Of a stretch of DNA of 64,000 nt, positions 17,146 through 25,756 are shown in pieces. The notes under the pieces are model-generated. The model had not been told where the DNA came from, did not search any database, and saw only the letters and a program-made list of their open reading frames with translations. This stretch comes from Enterobacteria phage GiZh, in sequence record NC_054903.1. One strand, written 5' to 3'. The position numbers were made by a program, and so were the translations under genes. Every line of letters begins with the position of its first letter. Position 1 is the first letter of the stretch.

Positions 17146-17619
17146 TTATTTGAACGATTTAACGTACTGAATAGAACCTTTACTATTCACAAAGGCAATT
17201 TTACCATTTTTATTATACATGGTAGCAGTACGTTGATAACCATAAGTTTGTTTACCAGATTGATAACCAACTAATGCGAAATTATCTTCGCCCATTTTAT
17301 TCTGTTTAGCGCGAATGCGTTCATGACCATGTGCCATAAGAACCTTAGCATCACCAGTTGCAATGGATCGACGAGTTTTTTCATCTTCAACTGTATTAAC
17401 AAAGTCGTCAAATGAATCAAATTTAGCATGAGATTTATTATACAATTTTCCATCTACTGCATAATTATATCCCTGTACATCCATCTCAACTTCTGTACCA
17501 TCATCCAATACAGCAGTGATTTTTTGACCTTTTTTAAATTTCAAAAGATCAGTAAAAGATTCAGCAATAATTTGAGAATTAATAGCTGCTTCAGTGATAA
17601 ATTCTTGATATGTTTTCAT
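17146..17619 (-). CDS. internal-protein-like capsid-targeted protein, 157 aa (ipII/ipIII position)
   Basis: N-terminus MKTYQEFITEAAINSQIIAE matches the T4 internal-protein capsid-targeting sequence (MKTYQEFIAE...) with Glu cleavage sites. Confidence 0.7.
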   Translation of the reverse strand: MKTYQEFITEAAINSQIIAESFTDLLKFKKGQKITAVLDDGTEVEMDVQGYNYAVDGKLYNKSHAKFDSFDDFVNTVEDEKTRRSIATGDAKVLMAHGHERIRAKQNKMGEDNFALVGYQSGKQTYGYQRTATMYNKNGKIAFVNSKGSIQYVKSFK

Positions 17620-17628
17620 ATGTTTCCT

Positions 17629-18045
17629 TTAAATGTAAATATTTTTACCGTAATACTTATACCAATGTGGTTTCATTAAAATTTTTTCATCAAGTCGTTG
17701 TTGACTCAATTTAATAGCTGATTTGCATGGATTATAATCATTTTTCCATTCTACTGGAATATCGCTGATGTCAGGAACTTCAGTATCTTTTATACTGAAC
17801 CCGCGTTTTAAGCATTCCGTTATAATGTCTAATTGACTCTTTCGCAAAAATTCTAACTTATCGTAAAAGAACGTAACATGACCAGAACCTAAAATAAACT
17901 CGGAAGATATTTTAAAATCTTTAACGCGCTTACCGTTTGCCACATGCTTACGAACTATACCAAAAACACGCGGCAATTCACGGTATTCTGCGATTAAATG
18001 TTGATCAGCAAGTTCAGATACTAAAGTCAAATTAATACGAGTCAT
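17629..18045 (-). CDS. denV: endonuclease V (pyrimidine-dimer DNA glycosylase)
   Basis: 138 aa, [29 protein letters not shown]...; I recognise this as T4 EndoV; GGAGGG upstream; early promoter at 18071-18099. Confidence 0.92.
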
Positions 18046-18070
18046 TTTATCCCTCCAATTAACTGTGAAT

Positions 18071-18099
18071 ATACTATCACAATTCTAGGAGAAAGTAAA
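18071..18099 (-). promoter_or_regulatory. early promoter (PeSL-type) of denV: -35 TTTACT, 17 bp, -10 TAGTAT
   Basis: Same -35/spacer/-10 architecture as the other elements. Confidence 0.55.
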
Positions 18100-18104
18100 C
18101 AACT

Positions 18105-18635
<531 letters not shown>

Positions 18636-19091
18636 TTAAAAGAGGCTGTTCATTATTCGGTAAAGTGAAGGACCCATCACATATTGCCACTGAGTACGAG
18701 GAATAAGAGCAAAAGCATCCATCTCTGGAATCATAACACCATCTTTATTTTCAAAATAAGACTCGCAATGGCAATTTCTAAACATCTCATGCTCTACTGG
18801 AATCGTATAATAAAACAGCTGTAAGTCTTTATTACTAGAATATTTAAATACACCTAGGTCTTCTAGAAGGTCTGGATTATAATTGCTAAAACCGGTCTCT
18901 TCTAAGCATTCTCTTCGTGCTGCATCTAGTGCGCTCAAATCAGAATTTTCTACACGGCCTTTTGGAATATCCCAACGATGTGCCATCATTCCAGGCTTAC
19001 GAGAACCAGTAACCCGTCCCATGAATAAATCTTTATCTTCTGTCATAAAGATAATACCAGCTGATAATGTTTTCATTTTAATTTCCTGCAT
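18636..19091 (-). CDS. nudE: Nudix hydrolase
   Basis: 151 aa with Nudix box GRVENSDLSALDAARRECLEETGF; same length and position as T4 NudE (e.1). Confidence 0.85.
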   Translation of the reverse strand: MQEIKMKTLSAGIIFMTEDKDLFMGRVTGSRKPGMMAHRWDIPKGRVENSDLSALDAARRECLEETGFSNYNPDLLEDLGVFKYSSNKDLQLFYYTIPVEHEMFRNCHCESYFENKDGVMIPEMDAFALIPRTQWQYVMGPSLYRIMNSLF

Positions 19092-19561
19092 TCGGTGATA
19101 AAATTATTTAAATTTTGAGTGTATTTCTTTTCATCAAAAATCTTTTGCTGCCTACGTAAACGCCATGGCATTTCAATGAACACGCACCATATTCCTGATA
19201 GTACTGCTGCTGTAAAAATATTAACAAGTATAATTAAAAGAATCCAATCTTCCGTTCTGCCTACTGGACTTTCTCCAAAGAAGCAAAATACAAATGATGT
19301 CACAGGAAAACTAATAATATACCACAGAATAACCTTCTTATCTGTGAACCAATCAGCGTTCGTTAACTTAGCACGACCATTTTGAATACACACGAATTTA
19401 TCATCTGTTACAGTAGATGGCTTAACTGCTTGATATCCCATTCTAAACTCCCTAATTAATCGTTTCTTTGTATCTTCAGAACAGCCGCTCCAGTCAACTC
19501 TATCGACTGAAATGCCATCGTCCCCATCATCTAAATCATACCAGCGAGTTTTTAAAATCAT
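19073..19561 (-). CDS. membrane protein, 162 aa
   Basis: Two C-terminal hydrophobic helices; C-terminal motif FITECRKLK shared with the next three genes. Confidence 0.65.
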   Translation of the reverse strand: MILKTRWYDLDDGDDGISVDRVDWSGCSEDTKKRLIREFRMGYQAVKPSTVTDDKFVCIQNGRAKLTNADWFTDKKVILWYIISFPVTSFVFCFFGESPVGRTEDWILLIILVNIFTAAVLSGIWCVFIEMPWRLRRQQKIFDEKKYTQNLNNFITECRKLK

Positions 19562-19932
19562 TTGATTTTCCTACAATCATTCACGAATTCTTTCATTGAT
19601 TCATTTTCAATATAAGACATGTAGTTATTATATTCTTTTAATTGTATTTTGTAATCCTTTTTTCTTTGCCAATTTATTTTAAAATTATCATAATGAAAAT
19701 ATAAAATAATACCAAAGAATGAAAATAATGAAATCGCTATAGTATAATGAAGTTCACTCCAAACTTCTATTATATCTACTATACCGCTGACATTACTGCG
19801 GATGTTTAAAATAATACAGTCAATCATTAATCCAATAAGACTACCAGCAAGAGCTGCAGCCAACGCCACAGCAAAAATTAAAAATGACTCAGAAAAAGAA
19901 TATTTGTCTTTATTTAGTTTTGGCTTTTGCAT
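19558..19932 (-). CDS. two-helix membrane protein, 124 aa
   Basis: Hydrophobic helices FLIFAVALAAALAGSLIGLMI and IAISLFSFFGIILYF; ends ...FVNDCRKIK; ATGA overlap with the downstream gene. Confidence 0.65.
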   Translation of the reverse strand: MQKPKLNKDKYSFSESFLIFAVALAAALAGSLIGLMIDCIILNIRSNVSGIVDIIEVWSELHYTIAISLFSFFGIILYFHYDNFKINWQRKKDYKIQLKEYNNYMSYIENESMKEFVNDCRKIK

Positions 19933-20306
19933 CGTGATTCCTTAACAAATTTCATAATTTCGTTAAATTCATGCATATCTAATTTAAGCTGGTGTTCCTT
20001 TTTAATCTTTTTACACTGAGCTTTCCATTCACGTACACGTTTACGATAATGCCTTCCTTGATACCAATATCCTACCCAATTTACAGGTACCAATAAAAAT
20101 GGAACTACTAATGGAAGAATTAGTGTTGCTCCAAATATTGCACCAGATTCAATATCAGTCATAACGTCTATAACTATTCCAGCAATCAACAGAATCACAA
20201 ATGATACGGCTACCACAGGACCTATTAACACATCAGTAGAAATTATCTGACGCTTTAATTCATACTTTAAGGGTTTACTTGGAAGATACATTGATGGCTT
20301 TGACAT
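19914..20306 (-). CDS. two-helix membrane protein, 130 aa
   Basis: Hydrophobic helices VVAVSFVILLIAGIVIDV and ILPLVVPFLLVPV; ends ...FVKESRCKSQN. Confidence 0.65.
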   Translation of the reverse strand: MSKPSMYLPSKPLKYELKRQIISTDVLIGPVVAVSFVILLIAGIVIDVMTDIESGAIFGATLILPLVVPFLLVPVNWVGYWYQGRHYRKRVREWKAQCKKIKKEHQLKLDMHEFNEIMKFVKESRCKSQN

Positions 20307-20880
20307 ATTCTCTGCATTCCTTCACAAATTTTTCTAATAATAAATCGCTTTCAAAATTGGGATTTTCTACGAATTTATCAAAAAGATTATCGACAATAGT
20401 TAAGATATTCTTTTTACTAAGAATACGTTTATTTTCATGCTTCGTTTCAGAATCAACTATAAGAGTAAAGAAATATTTCTTGCCCTGAAATTTTACAGTA
20501 GTATCAATATAGAATAAATTTGACTTTTGTAAATTACGTTTAAACCATGCATCACTTAAACTATAAACGCCAAGATAATCATAATCGTCGTTTAAATAAC
20601 AGACCGTCCATTCAGGAGAAACAAAATCAGTAAATTCAACGTCAAAATCGCATGTTAATAAATGAATTGATTCAATACTGTTAATAAGTATTCCAGGACG
20701 TATTAAAGACTTTTTACCTTTATAAAATCCAGAAAGACTTTCATCAGTTTCATATGAAGAACCCCAATAATAATTACGTCCTTCTGCCATACGTTTAAGA
20801 GCATTTAATAATTGGTCTGGAACATCAACCTGTCTTTGGAACTCTTCAAACATTGAATTGAAATCACTTTGCATTTTCAT
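20275..20880 (-). CDS. hypothetical protein, 201 aa
   Basis: ORF track; ATG; C-terminal ...KFVKECREYVK motif like the three downstream membrane proteins. Confidence 0.65.
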   Translation of the reverse strand: MKMQSDFNSMFEEFQRQVDVPDQLLNALKRMAEGRNYYWGSSYETDESLSGFYKGKKSLIRPGILINSIESIHLLTCDFDVEFTDFVSPEWTVCYLNDDYDYLGVYSLSDAWFKRNLQKSNLFYIDTTVKFQGKKYFFTLIVDSETKHENKRILSKKNILTIVDNLFDKFVENPNFESDLLLEKFVKECREYVKAINVSSK

Positions 20881-20896
20881 TCCTACTTACTCCAAG

Positions 20897-20917
20897 TAAT
20901 AGGGGCCGAAGCCCCTT
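20897..20917 (-). terminator. hairpin, weak terminator or RNA-processing stem-loop
   Basis: Stem GGGGC-(CGAA)-GCCCC; minus-strand 3' flank only weakly U-rich; same 20-mer as at 60769-60788. Confidence 0.4.
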
Positions 20918-20921
20918 ATCA

Positions 20922-21515
20922 TTATTTCAGAGAATTAATGTATTCCTGAACATCGGCAGAGGTAGTTTCAACCCCAGAAATATTGCCATTAAAGGTTTCA
21001 ACTCGAGCAAGAGTATCTTCAATATCAACCTTAGTCAGTGCTGCAATTTCAACTACATCATCAGCAGTACTAATTCCGAGGGCATTCGCGGCGCGAGTTT
21101 CACGGATATATTCCAATTTAACTGCAAGTTCTTGGCGAGCATCATCTAACTCAACTACTTTCTTGGCAATTTCAATTCGCATTTCAGCATAACCATCAGC
21201 TTTAGTAGTCAACTGCTCAGCTGTTCGACGATATAGTAAACCGAGTTTAGCATGCATTGTTACATCTTGACCTTCAGAAAGAAGCTTGCGAATTTCACGC
21301 TCTTTTGATTCGGCCTGCTTATTCTTTTCGACAATAAGTTCACGAATACGCTTTTCTTCATTAATAGATTTAACAGAAGCAGTTTTTAGATCTTTAATCT
21401 TATCAAGTAGTTTTGCTGCCGCAGCAGTATACTGTTCTTCAACAGATAGATTTTTAGCCATAGCAGAACCAAGTTTAGTGCGAATAAACTCAACAATTTT
21501 CTTCAGCATGTTCAT
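20922..21515 (-). CDS. coiled-coil protein, 197 aa
   Basis: Largely helical/heptad sequence throughout; AAAGGAA upstream of ATG; own promoter at 21560-21588. Any PspA/Vipp1 relationship is speculative. Confidence 0.62.
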
Positions 21516-21559
21516 AGCATTTCCTTTAGTTAATTAAGGGTTTTATAATCCGTGGGAGT

Positions 21560-21588
21560 ATTATACTCTACTCCCAAGAGTTTGTAAA
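21560..21588 (-). promoter_or_regulatory. early promoter (PeSL-type): -35 TTTACA, 17 bp, -10 TATAAT
   Basis: Inverted repeat GGGAGTA / TACTCCC around the -10; precedes the gene at 20922-21515. Confidence 0.6.
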
Positions 21589-21589
21589 C

Positions 21590-21919
21590 TTATTCTTCGT
21601 CCAATTCATCAATAAATTTATCGATACTACTATTAATAGACTCATCGATGATTAACAAAGCATCATCTATAATATTAATATTTTCTAAAGCATCAATATA
21701 AGCTTGATTGACTATAGACCATGCCCTTTGAAAATATGGGGCTTCATCATCAGGACTGAACCAACGTACACCTTCAAAGATACGTTTAGCATAATCCAAC
21801 ACCCATTGTACAGGCATGTTTTGAGAGCGTTCATTAAACTCTTCAAAGTCCTTAGATTCAAAAAGCTCTTCAGGATAATAATTTCTATTACAAAAAGCTT
21901 TACTAAAGTTACGTTTCAT
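21590..21919 (-). CDS. hypothetical acidic protein, 109 aa
   Basis: ORF track; ATG with GAGGAG upstream; own promoter at 21946-21974. Confidence 0.6.
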   Translation of the reverse strand: MKRNFSKAFCNRNYYPEELFESKDFEEFNERSQNMPVQWVLDYAKRIFEGVRWFSPDDEAPYFQRAWSIVNQAYIDALENINIIDDALLIIDESINSSIDKFIDELDEE

Positions 21920-22480: not shown

Positions 22481-22954
22481 TTATTTGATTTGTTTAGCAG
22501 ACCAAATGCGGTCTTTAATAATTTTTTGGATGTCTTCAACATATTCAAGAGAGTGAACATGTGGGTTATCTTTGAAACTATAAGCACGAGCTAGCTTTTG
22601 GCCTTCAGTTTTAATTACTAAAAGCTCTTTAAGGATAGCTTCATATTTGGAGATAATTCCTTTAACAATATTTTTCTCTTGTGCGACTTTAGGATCTGCT
22701 TTAGGAGCAGGTTTACCTGAAGCCTTTGCAAAAGCAGCTCCAGTAGCAACTAAACTTTTCCAGGCCATACTAACTGCATTTCCCGTAAATCCTTCCGCTT
22801 TCATATCGCGAGCAAATTGGAATCGTGACTCATCGGAAGCATCTTTATAGGAATATTTACCCGCGGCAATGGCAGCTTTTGCAACAGCTTGAATTTCAGT
22901 GCTAGATGCTTCATTTAACACCGCTTCATTTAAAAATTGAGCATATGATTTCAT
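22481..22954 (-). CDS. internal-protein-like capsid-targeted protein, 157 aa
   Basis: N-terminus MKSYAQFLNEAVLNEAS resembles the internal-protein capsid-targeting sequence; TATAAATA late promoter at 22991-22998 upstream and hairpin terminators on both sides. Confidence 0.65.
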   Translation of the reverse strand: MKSYAQFLNEAVLNEASSTEIQAVAKAAIAAGKYSYKDASDESRFQFARDMKAEGFTGNAVSMAWKSLVATGAAFAKASGKPAPKADPKVAQEKNIVKGIISKYEAILKELLVIKTEGQKLARAYSFKDNPHVHSLEYVEDIQKIIKDRIWSAKQIK

Positions 22955-25188: not shown

Positions 25189-25422
25189 TTATTTTTTACG
25201 AAAAATTGATTTATTTTCTGCTGCCCATTTTTCAATAACTGCAGCAGGACCAGTAACAACAATTTTATCACCGTAATCTTCTGCGGCGAGTTGACCGAAA
25301 TTATCTAATGCATCACGAAGAACTCCATGAGGCATTTCACCCATTTTATCTTTCTTGCCGGTGTAAATAAACTCAACTTTTACATCAGAAGATTCAGCGA
25401 TAAACTCTTTGAAAGTTTTCAT
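25189..25422 (-). CDS. internal-protein-like capsid-targeted protein, ~77 aa (ipI locus)
   Basis: ORF track 25189..25488 trimmed to ATG at 25422 giving MKTFKEFIAESS..., a capsid-targeting-type N-terminus; the table start lies upstream of the promoter at 25457-25485. Confidence 0.6.
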   Translation of the reverse strand: MKTFKEFIAESSDVKVEFIYTGKKDKMGEMPHGVLRDALDNFGQLAAEDYGDKIVVTGPAAVIEKWAAENKSIFRKK

Positions 25423-25456
25423 TTTGATTTCCATTTGGTTTTGTTTTGATAGAGTA

Positions 25457-25498: not shown

Positions 25499-25756
25499 TT
25501 ATTTTAAATCTTCTAATCGTTTCTTCATCTTAGAACCATTTTTAGCAATTTCTCCTGCATCTGAGCATAATGCTAAAAGCGCTTTAACTTTAGTTTGGTC
25601 TCCTTTAAAAGATGAAGGATCGACTGCAGCAGCAAGTTCTTTAATACGAGAGAAAAGACGCTCAGCTTCAGCTAAAGCCATTCCAAGCTTTACTTCCATA
25701 CCGTGGGAAGATTCGGTGATAGTAGTTTTTGTAGCAAACTCTTTGAAAGTTTTCAT
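25499..25756 (-). CDS. internal-protein-like capsid-targeted protein, 85 aa (ipI locus)
   Basis: N-terminus MKTFKEFATKTTITESS; flanked by near-identical promoter cassettes at 25457-25485 and 25787-25815. Confidence 0.65.
   Translation of the reverse strand: MKTFKEFATKTTITESSHGMEVKLGMALAEAERLFSRIKELAAAVDPSSFKGDQTKVKALLALCSDAGEIAKNGSKMKKRLEDLK

Follow-up and report, generated by a model that had tools for sequence, protein, structure and literature searches.

The DNA analysed here is a 64,000-nucleotide stretch of Enterobacteria phage GiZh (NC_054903.1), referred to below as the window. It belongs to Tequatrovirus; its positions 18000 to 21600 match 680 phage records and share 96.9% identity with phage AndreasVesalius. 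On the minus strand of this region lie four open reading frames (ORFs) that were identified as e.2, e.3, e.4, and e.5 by comparison with the annotated T4 genome, with e.6 upstream of them and nudE, then the endolysin gene e, downstream. An earlier note on this DNA had pointed out that the four products share a C-terminal motif, and rechecked translations returned the ORFs, their coordinates, and their endings exactly as it had given them:

20275-20880, minus strand: e.5 homologue, 201 amino acids, soluble; ends in ...LLEKFVKECREYVKAINVSSK (...KFVKECREYVKAINVSSK); PHROG 2607.
19914-20306, minus strand: e.4 homologue, 130 amino acids, two transmembrane (TM) helices at 20160-20216 and 20082-20138; ends in ...EIMKFVKESRCKSQN (...KFVKESRCKSQN), with a basic tail of net charge +9; PHROG 2604.
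19558-19932, minus strand: e.3 homologue, 124 amino acids, two TM helices at 19828-19884 and 19696-19752; ends in ...EFVNDCRKIK (...SMKEFVNDCRKIK); PHROG 2330.
19073-19561, minus strand: e.2 homologue, intact, 162 amino acids, a soluble N-domain followed by two TM helices at 19277-19333 and 19190-19246; ends in ...NFITECRKLK (...NLNNFITECRKLK); PHROG 2203, "membrane protein."

The presence of three two-helix membrane proteins, also proposed in the note, was confirmed by Kyte-Doolittle hydropathy, which yielded two TM helices each in e.2 (residues 77-95 and 106-124), e.3 (17-35 and 61-79), and e.4 (31-49 and 57-75) and none in e.5. Successive genes overlap by 32 nt (e.5/e.4), 19 nt (e.4/e.3), and 4 nt (the ATGA of both e.3/e.2 and e.2/nudE). 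As a result, e.5, e.4, e.3, e.2, and nudE form one translationally coupled string without intergenic DNA. In T4, the RNAs of e.2 to e.6 are classed as early and all five proteins have been detected by time-resolved omics (PMC9697503, supplement files 4 and 6); the products of e.2 to e.5 are real, expressed, early proteins in that phage.

The codons of the motif lie at the following positions:

20311-20328, minus strand: e.5, TTT GTG AAG GAA TGC AGA (FVKECR).
19932-19949, minus strand: e.4, TTT GTT AAG GAA TCA CGA (FVKESR).
19570-19587, minus strand: e.3, TTC GTG AAT GAT TGT AGG (FVNDCR).
19085-19102, minus strand: e.2, TTT ATC ACC GAA TGC AGG (FITECR).

In six frames of the window, the pattern F[VI].[ED][CS]R matched four times, and all four matches were the C termini of e.2 to e.5. 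The 168.9-kb T4 genome contained six matches, namely the four tails and two Ser variants elsewhere, and the Cys form F[IV]..CR was found there three times, only in e.2, e.3, and e.5. None of the approximately 90 other likely genes of the window, many of them equally tightly coupled, has this ending. T4 gene junctions do not in general produce such an ending. Across 13 sequence sets, 24 matches to F[IV]..CR fell at most 20 amino acids from the stop of a real ORF and four fell elsewhere, two of the latter being remnants of true tails. A chance likeness among short, Lys- and Glu-rich C termini of AT-rich phage genes has nothing in its favor except the general compositional bias of T4 proteins. 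These tails account for every match in the window and for four of the six in T4, and the motif recurs at C termini in nine genera; we regard chance as vanishingly improbable.

The relatives compared comprised records of Mosigvirus, Jiaodavirus, Gaprivervirus, Kanagawavirus, Ishigurovirus, Karamvirus, Tulanevirus, and Pseudotevenvirus, together with 15 IMG/VR contigs anchored on e.6. The motif was found at the end of about 30 different accessory proteins, some with two TM helices and some soluble. Their genes cluster downstream of e.6 in at least nine Straboviridae genera, Aeromonas phages included; beyond Tequatrovirus, these are Mosigvirus, Gaprivervirus, Dhakavirus-like phages, Jiaodavirus, Kanagawavirus, Karamvirus, Ishigurovirus, and Tulanevirus. 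The two-TM bearers are e.2, e.3, e.4, a Mosigvirus protein of 101 amino acids, and four tandem Karamvirus proteins, while the soluble ones include the e.5 family, three Ishigurovirus proteins, and others, some of them again from Karamvirus. All bearers are encoded within a few kilobases downstream of e.6, and a motif gene directly follows e.6 in seven of the nine genera. Their bodies are mostly unalignable, the likeness being confined to the last 10 to 16 residues. The 101-amino-acid gene is an extra one in the Mosigvirus-like contig L011 (8352-8657, ending in ...NLENFIKECRGK), where it lies approximately 2 kb downstream, after a gene for 318 amino acids; Karamvirus PG7 has its four tandem two-TM motif genes at the place of this L011 gene.

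An alignment of 28 tails gave the consensus (L/I)-E-x-F-(I/V)-(K/R)-E-C-R-(K/R/G). Hydrophobic residues occupy positions -3, 0, +1, and +4 of the motif, as would be expected along one side of an amphipathic helix of two turns. A low-confidence AlphaFold2 (AF2) model of e.5 places the motif within a C-terminal helix (residues 179-195). The tails that follow the second TM helix have net charges of +6 in e.2, +3 in e.3, and +9 in e.4 and are therefore, by the positive-inside rule, predicted to be cytoplasmic.

The motif had been explained in the earlier note as a duplicated junction module, with the Shine-Dalgarno (SD) sequence and the start codon of the next gene contained in the motif codons and read as protein. 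The SD part of this description stands: AAGGAA falls on the K-E codons at the e.5-to-e.4 and e.4-to-e.3 junctions, and AGGAAA falls on the R-K codons at the e.3-to-e.2 and e.2-to-nudE junctions. The start codon is inside the motif codons only in e.4 (CG-ATG-C), where the ATG of e.3 (19930-19932) overlaps the Arg codon and the Cys codon that follows. Elsewhere it lies outside, just past the motif in e.5 and in an ATGA overlap three codons later in e.3 and e.2, so that the distance from the Phe codon to the next ATG is 22, 17, 26, and 26 nt for e.5, e.4, e.3, and e.2, respectively.

Codon usage in 36 distinct tails bears on the remainder of the explanation. Phe was encoded by TTT (21 tails) or TTC (14), Cys by TGT (15) or TGC (12), and Arg by AGA (14), CGT (6), AGG (5), CGA (4), CGC (4), or CGG (1). 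This free use of synonymous codons at the conserved F, C, and R indicates that selection acts on the amino acids. The need for an SD sequence accounts for the frequent K-E at +2/+3, or for K after R, and leaves F, I/V, C, and R unexplained. The motif is also retained 37 nt upstream of the e.4 start in Gaprivervirus e.5 and in orthologues that are only 20 to 50% identical overall. Moreover, it is found at ends without a coupled downstream gene, in proteins of 102 amino acids from Klebsiella phage 5N (LELFIAKCRAK), 109 from Gaprivervirus (LFLEYCRS...), 288 from Aeromonas phage Aes012 (MFVDYCRR...), and 80 from ZPAH1 (SFIKECRKIVS). Because the SD register differs between junctions, synonymous codons vary, and the motif persists without a coupled gene, the peptide is more than a duplicated SD/start module read as protein. 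In the light of these comparisons, the peptide itself is the selected object, with the SD/start and recombination roles riding on its codons, and the causal story of the note is mostly the wrong way round.

The conserved element could instead be RNA, a translational operator or enhancer upstream of the coupled starts, such as a RegA-type AU-rich site or an S1-binding U-rich tract. The sequences are indeed AU-rich and located at ribosome-binding sites, and AAAUUUGUUAAGGAA at the e.4/e.3 junction agrees at 12 of 15 positions with AAAAUUGUUAUGUAA, which we take to be the consensus for RegA obtained by systematic evolution of ligands by exponential enrichment (SELEX). However, it is the third positions that vary and not the amino acids, the reading frame is constant, and the motif also occurs far from any start or without one, the distance from the Phe codon to the ATG extending from 17 to 37 nt. 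An RNA element is thus a very improbable source of the conservation.

Cys and Arg are the most invariant positions of the motif (27 Cys and 34 Arg codons among the 36 tails), as would be expected if this pair were chemically active, for instance as a metal ligand shared between tails, a redox or thiol-modification site, or a target of ADP-ribosylation. Several of the proteins would each contribute one Cys, as in zinc-clasp arrangements. However, members of the e.4 lineage all carry S, I, or V instead of Cys, which favors a role in packing over one in chemistry; in addition, the hydrophobic spacing fits helix packing, and no second ligand residue is conserved. We consider a chemical function decidedly improbable.

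At the DNA level, the gene junctions contain four repeat copies:

20316-20331, minus strand: junction repeat copy 1, AAATTTGTGAAGGAAT, with the SD AAGGAA for e.4.
19937-19952, minus strand: junction repeat copy 2, AAATTTGTTAAGGAAT, with the SD AAGGAA for e.3.
19558-19575, minus strand: junction repeat copy 3, TGTAGGAAAATCAAATGA, encoding C-R-K-I-K-stop, with the SD AGGAAA and the ATGA start of e.2.
19073-19090, minus strand: junction repeat copy 4, TGCAGGAAATTAAAATGA, encoding C-R-K-L-K-stop, with the SD AGGAAA and the ATGA start of nudE at 19074-19076.

The likeness of the junctions that the earlier note had described was borne out by alignment, in pairs. The ends of e.5 and e.4 (AAATTTGTKAAGGAAT) agree at 15 of 16 positions in the window and are identical in T4, and those of e.3 and e.2 (TGYAGGAAAWTYAAATGA) agree at 15 of 18 positions in the window and 16 of 18 in T4. 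Since the next SD and start lie in or just after the motif codons, each gene is bracketed by direct repeats of 16 to 18 nt.

Such repeats might have arisen by tandem duplication of a membrane-protein gene together with its coupling element, as the note had suggested. The four genes fall into four different PHROGs, and searches of Pfam, NCBIfam, and PDB sequences gave no match for any of them; the e.5 homologues bear a pre-computed PF26876 tag. Products e.2, e.3, and e.4 each consist of two TM helices, a basic tail, and the motif, and their genes are adjacent and co-oriented; the soluble e.5 does not fit a duplicated two-TM family. The N termini of e.3 and e.4 are alike, M-(S/Q)-K-P (MSKPS and MQKPK), as are their junction DNA and architecture. 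In hhalign, the two were matched at 93.5% over 58 columns that cover the second TM helix and the tail, and at 71% over 17 juxtamembrane columns when the motif was cut off. By contrast, e.2 and e.5 matched the others only over the last 10 to 16 residues in sequence and profile comparisons. Judged by these resemblances, e.3 and e.4 are probable old duplicates, and the suggestion of tandem duplication may hold for this pair; for e.2 and e.5, of which only the ends match, it is not supported.

A broader form of this suggestion makes the peptide itself an incidental translation of the SD/start module, copied along with a two-TM gene. It accords with the near identity of the junction DNAs in pairs (15 to 16 of 16 and 15 to 16 of 18 positions), with the SD inside the motif codons, and with the common architecture, N termini, and profile match of e.3 and e.4. 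Furthermore, a tandem duplication with one breakpoint in the tail of e.5 would leave the upstream copy with that tail, and this could explain how the non-homologous e.5 came to share it. It does not accord with the free variation of synonymous codons at the conserved residues, with the different positions of the SD within the motif in the two junction pairs, or with the maintenance of the motif between genera at an overall identity of about 20 to 35% and without a coupled start. The bodies of e.2 and e.5 are unrelated to those of e.3 and e.4, the match between the latter two falls off once the motif is removed, and the peptide is not produced at any further coupled junction of the window or of T4. 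Tail grafting by tandem duplication could have seeded the sharing of the motif, but it cannot explain its persistence and breadth. A duplicated SD/start module as the sole cause of the shared peptide is already largely refuted, and we consider this model unlikely overall.

Replacement of the body of the protein by a non-homologous one was examined at the e.5 position of Gaprivervirus and rejected. BLASTP aligned only the last 15 amino acids, yet hhalign found an internal match of 28 columns at 84%. A Kanagawavirus protein of 236 amino acids bridges T4 and Jiaodavirus e.5, and the Gaprivervirus and T4-type e.5 proteins are probably divergent orthologues. Word-indexed homologue searches with e.3 and e.5 returned close relatives only, and an exhaustive HMMER search of 1.84 billion representatives with the e.5 profile returned no distant homologue.

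Single genes of the string are missing from some phages. In T2, Yersinia phage PST, F26, RPN226, F13076, SA20RB, and contig L007, e.3 has no e.2 after it and is coupled to nudE directly; e.2 DNA was found in 445 records versus 605 for e.3. The e.2-less genomes have a hybrid end, ...FV(S/I)DCRKLK, encoded by GATTGCAGGAAA joined to TTAAAATGA, of which the left part is of the e.3 type and the right part of the e.2 type. This hybrid points to a crossover within the 9-nt identity TGCAGGAAA of copies 3 and 4. Similarly, e.4 is absent from the Dhakavirus-like contigs L016, L017, and L019, where the hybrid junction AAAGAGGTTCAAAATG joined to GAACGGCC gives e.5 a hybrid tail, ...ECREYAKEVQNGTA; here the crossover falls within the SD-ATG repeat AAAGRGGTTCRWAATG. 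Because the boundaries of these gene-sized indels lie inside the junction repeats, the junctions also act as crossover points for the loss or gain of cassettes. That the common ending is a genuine C-terminal motif at the protein level, broad in distribution and with indels at its junctions, we hold with high confidence.

Smaller differences were seen within e.2 and e.3. Relative to the 162-amino-acid form of the window and AndreasVesalius, e.2 of the T4 reference (L001, 3153-3461) has a 1-nt deletion and, approximately 75 nt on, a 1-nt insertion. As a result of the frameshift, it is annotated as a truncated ORF of 102 amino acids (e.2a/e.2b in T4T), and the end coding for FITECRKLK persists. 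Among phages that are approximately 97% identical, e.3 is a mosaic: a 12-nt indel and clustered substitutions occupy window positions 19760 to 19890 (minus strand), from the first TM helix to the loop. This segment has 78% amino acid identity between the window and AndreasVesalius or T4, and both ends of e.3 are conserved. A swap of junction cassettes as the source of the allele difference between the window and AndreasVesalius was ruled out, since the divergence is found only in the TM1-loop segment and is not bounded by junctions. Most of e.3 is deleted in the Mosigvirus-like contig L011 (6101-6200), with its last ~27 codons, including FIKECRK, left in place.

Two known systems resemble the motif and its junctions. 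The capsid targeting sequence (CTS) of T4 internal proteins (MKTYQEFIAE/A) is a peptide of approximately 10 residues on otherwise unrelated, rapidly exchanged accessory proteins of variable T-even loci. It is conserved as protein, and its DNA forms a constant edge for cassette exchange; located at the N terminus directly after Met, it targets the protein for packaging into the head and is cut by the gp21 prohead protease after I/L-x-E. The motif of e.2 to e.5 is likewise a short peptide common to unrelated, exchangeable accessory proteins, and both peptides contain hydrophobic-x-x-F-I-x-E-small, a likeness of four residues that may be due to chance. Unlike the CTS, the e.2-e.5 motif is C-terminal in every case, is carried mostly by integral membrane proteins, and is not known to be processed. 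The window itself has four genes that start with a CTS, all on the minus strand (17146-17619, 22481-22954, 25189-25434, and 25499-25756). Their N termini are MKTYQEFITEA, MKSYAQFLNEA, MKTFKEFI.., and MKTFKEFATK, and such genes vary in number and identity between related contigs.

The other system is that of the promoter-early stem-loop (PeSL) cassettes, which are intergenic, contain an early promoter and a stem-loop, and allow T4-type phages to shuffle their modules (Arbiol et al. 2010, PMC2839356; Comeau et al. 2014, PMC4122927); their crossovers were mapped between the SD and the -10 box (PMC2839356). In both cases, short repeats that include an SD and an ATG lie at gene boundaries of hyperplastic regions, and recombination deletes, inserts, or swaps single genes; the single-gene indels with hybrid junctions at e.2 and e.4 are of this kind, the evidence here being comparative only. 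However, the e.2-e.5 repeats are 16 to 18 nt of coding sequence in overlapping genes and encode a conserved peptide. Neither an early promoter nor a stem-loop was found in the four junctions, the sole hairpin being located between e.6 and e.5 and the best promoter match upstream of e.6. The features flanking the four genes are as follows:

21560-21588, minus strand: strong early-type promoter match TTTACA-17-TATAAT, 11 of 12 positions, between e.7 and e.6, upstream of e.6.
20922-21515, minus strand: e.6, a conserved coiled-coil hairpin protein, directly upstream of e.5.
20899-20919, minus strand: stem-loop GGGGCTTCGGCCCC with a UUCG loop, between e.6 and e.5.
18636-19076, minus strand: nudE (Nudix hydrolase; Pfam NUDIX), the last gene of the coupled string, with a probable start, MKTLSAG, at 19076.

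The hairpin and the promoter match resemble the parts of a PeSL, split across e.6. The motif and junctions of e.2 to e.5 belong to neither the CTS nor the PeSL class, which are the closest known things.

The longest ORF of nudE, which is the one annotated in T4 RefSeq, begins at 19091. Its ATG arises where the E and C codons of the e.2 motif meet (GA-ATG-C) and has no SD. The ATG at 19076, in contrast, is preceded at 5 nt by AGGAAA and overlaps the stop of e.2 in ATGA. It is preferred because of this SD geometry and because the MK start is annotated in other records; the longer start is probably mis-annotated. On the practical side, the motif flags nudE starts that have been annotated at the ATG within the e.2 motif codons.

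Approximately half of T4 genes are still without a function, e.2 to e.5 among them. The earlier note had offered superinfection exclusion or lysis timing as possible roles for small membrane proteins beside the endolysin. In BLASTP comparisons of e.2 to e.5 with ten T4 proteins, among them Imm, Sp, RI, RIII, T, Ac, and the spanins, nothing better than an E value of 0.26 was obtained. Literature searches on the function of e.2 to e.5 or on the motif returned nothing specific, and the predicted model of e.5 was uninformative as to function. Like class II holins and antiholins, e.2 to e.4 are small and have two TM helices, a predicted N-in/C-in topology, and a charged C-terminal tail (+3 to +9), and their genes lie 0.5 to 2 kb upstream of the endolysin gene e. 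Unlike holins, however, e.2 to e.5 are transcribed early rather than late, nudE intervenes before e, and the T4 holin gene t is located elsewhere; nor are the proteins similar to T4 T, RI, or RIII, and they are dispensable in nature.

The circumstances of the motif suggest a role in docking. Early expression, location in the membrane with predicted cytoplasmic tails, and a conserved amphipathic end on unrelated proteins point in this direction, as do the synteny with the conserved, scaffold-like e.6 and the natural dispensability of individual members. We tentatively propose, with less than even confidence, that the motif may form a helix for docking or assembly, with a common partner located at the inner face of the cytoplasmic membrane. 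The helix would tie variable early membrane and soluble proteins to that one partner, for which the candidates would be e.6, a long helical hairpin that is possibly PspA/Vipp1-like, or the motif bearers themselves. In its e.3/e.4 part, the family would probably have grown by tandem duplication that carried the junction along. The explanation as a whole, which combines a motif selected as protein, junctions that serve as crossover points, and a docking helix, is the one that we are inclined to accept, with some reservation.

Several points weigh against it. The docking role derives from the conservation pattern, predicted topology, and synteny only, the helicity of the tails from residue periodicity and one low-confidence model, and the TM topology of e.2 to e.4 from a prediction by hydropathy and charge only. 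The fold matches of e.6 are generic for long helical hairpins, with BAR domains and tektin outscoring PspA, and its sequence matches to Vipp1 have E values of approximately 1. Pseudotevenvirus RB43 and EBPL, which have a distant e.6, have no motif proteins within 4.5 kb. As to the crossovers, one identical junction is present in all e.2-less genomes examined and may represent a single old event that spread rather than recurrent recombination, this event could be either a loss or a gain, and the loss of e.3 in L011 is an internal deletion rather than a junction crossover. With the phage shock protein (Psp) system, in which PspA acts with the small membrane partners PspB/PspC, no significant sequence match was obtained and the fold match of e.6 is generic; the link between the motif and e.6 is a conjecture.

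In a stronger version of the docking proposal, the C-terminal peptide would be an address tag, as the N-terminal CTS is for internal proteins, through which changeable early membrane and soluble effectors are brought to a single conserved machine of the phage at the inner membrane. One possibility for this machine is a PspA/ESCRT-III-like scaffold of e.6 with a protective or remodeling role at the membrane of the infected cell. The boldest version, prompted by the CTS-like core F-I-x-E, would identify the machine with the membrane-bound prohead initiation complex. If an address tag were indeed involved, phages could swap effectors at the tag-coding junctions and have them still plugged into the same hub. 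We consider this quite unlikely.

For the docking helix and for the motif in general, the occurrence of one tag on approximately 30 unalignable accessory proteins from nine genera offers an experimental handle, namely what binds their last 10 to 15 residues. The tag also groups proteins that are kept apart by sequence clustering, such as that of PHROGs and Pfam. To the PeSL picture of single-gene shuffling in T4-type phages it adds a second kind of boundary element, in which recombination acts on coding DNA. Three constraints meet in a handful of codons, namely those from the protein, from ribosome binding at the next gene, and from recombination.

Some database names of these proteins are at odds with the searches described above. 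Homologues of e.3, e.4, and e.5 are called "sulfurtransferase," and e.3 is once called "DNA primase" (P0013 and P0031; OL964745, MK962756, and OP870145; GenBank/Prokaryotic Genome Annotation Pipeline [PGAP]). No match backing these names was found in the Pfam, NCBIfam, or PDB searches, and they look like propagated mis-annotations.

A second C-terminal motif, G-x-W-(V/I/L)-(S/A)-S-S-x-x-C-stop, is shared by tandem runs of two to six small genes for soluble proteins, which follow closely after the e.3-type gene in loci of Mosigvirus, Gaprivervirus/Dhakavirus-like phages, Kanagawavirus, and Karamvirus (L003, 3231-4001; L005, 3191-4212; L025, 6216-7830; L027, 5802-6328). Examples include WVSSSAMC, WVSSSSEC, WVSSSYEC, WFSSSMSC, and IWYPSSC, and the bodies of these proteins look diverse. 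The stop codon of this second motif usually abuts a GGA Shine-Dalgarno sequence (TGCTAAGGAA).

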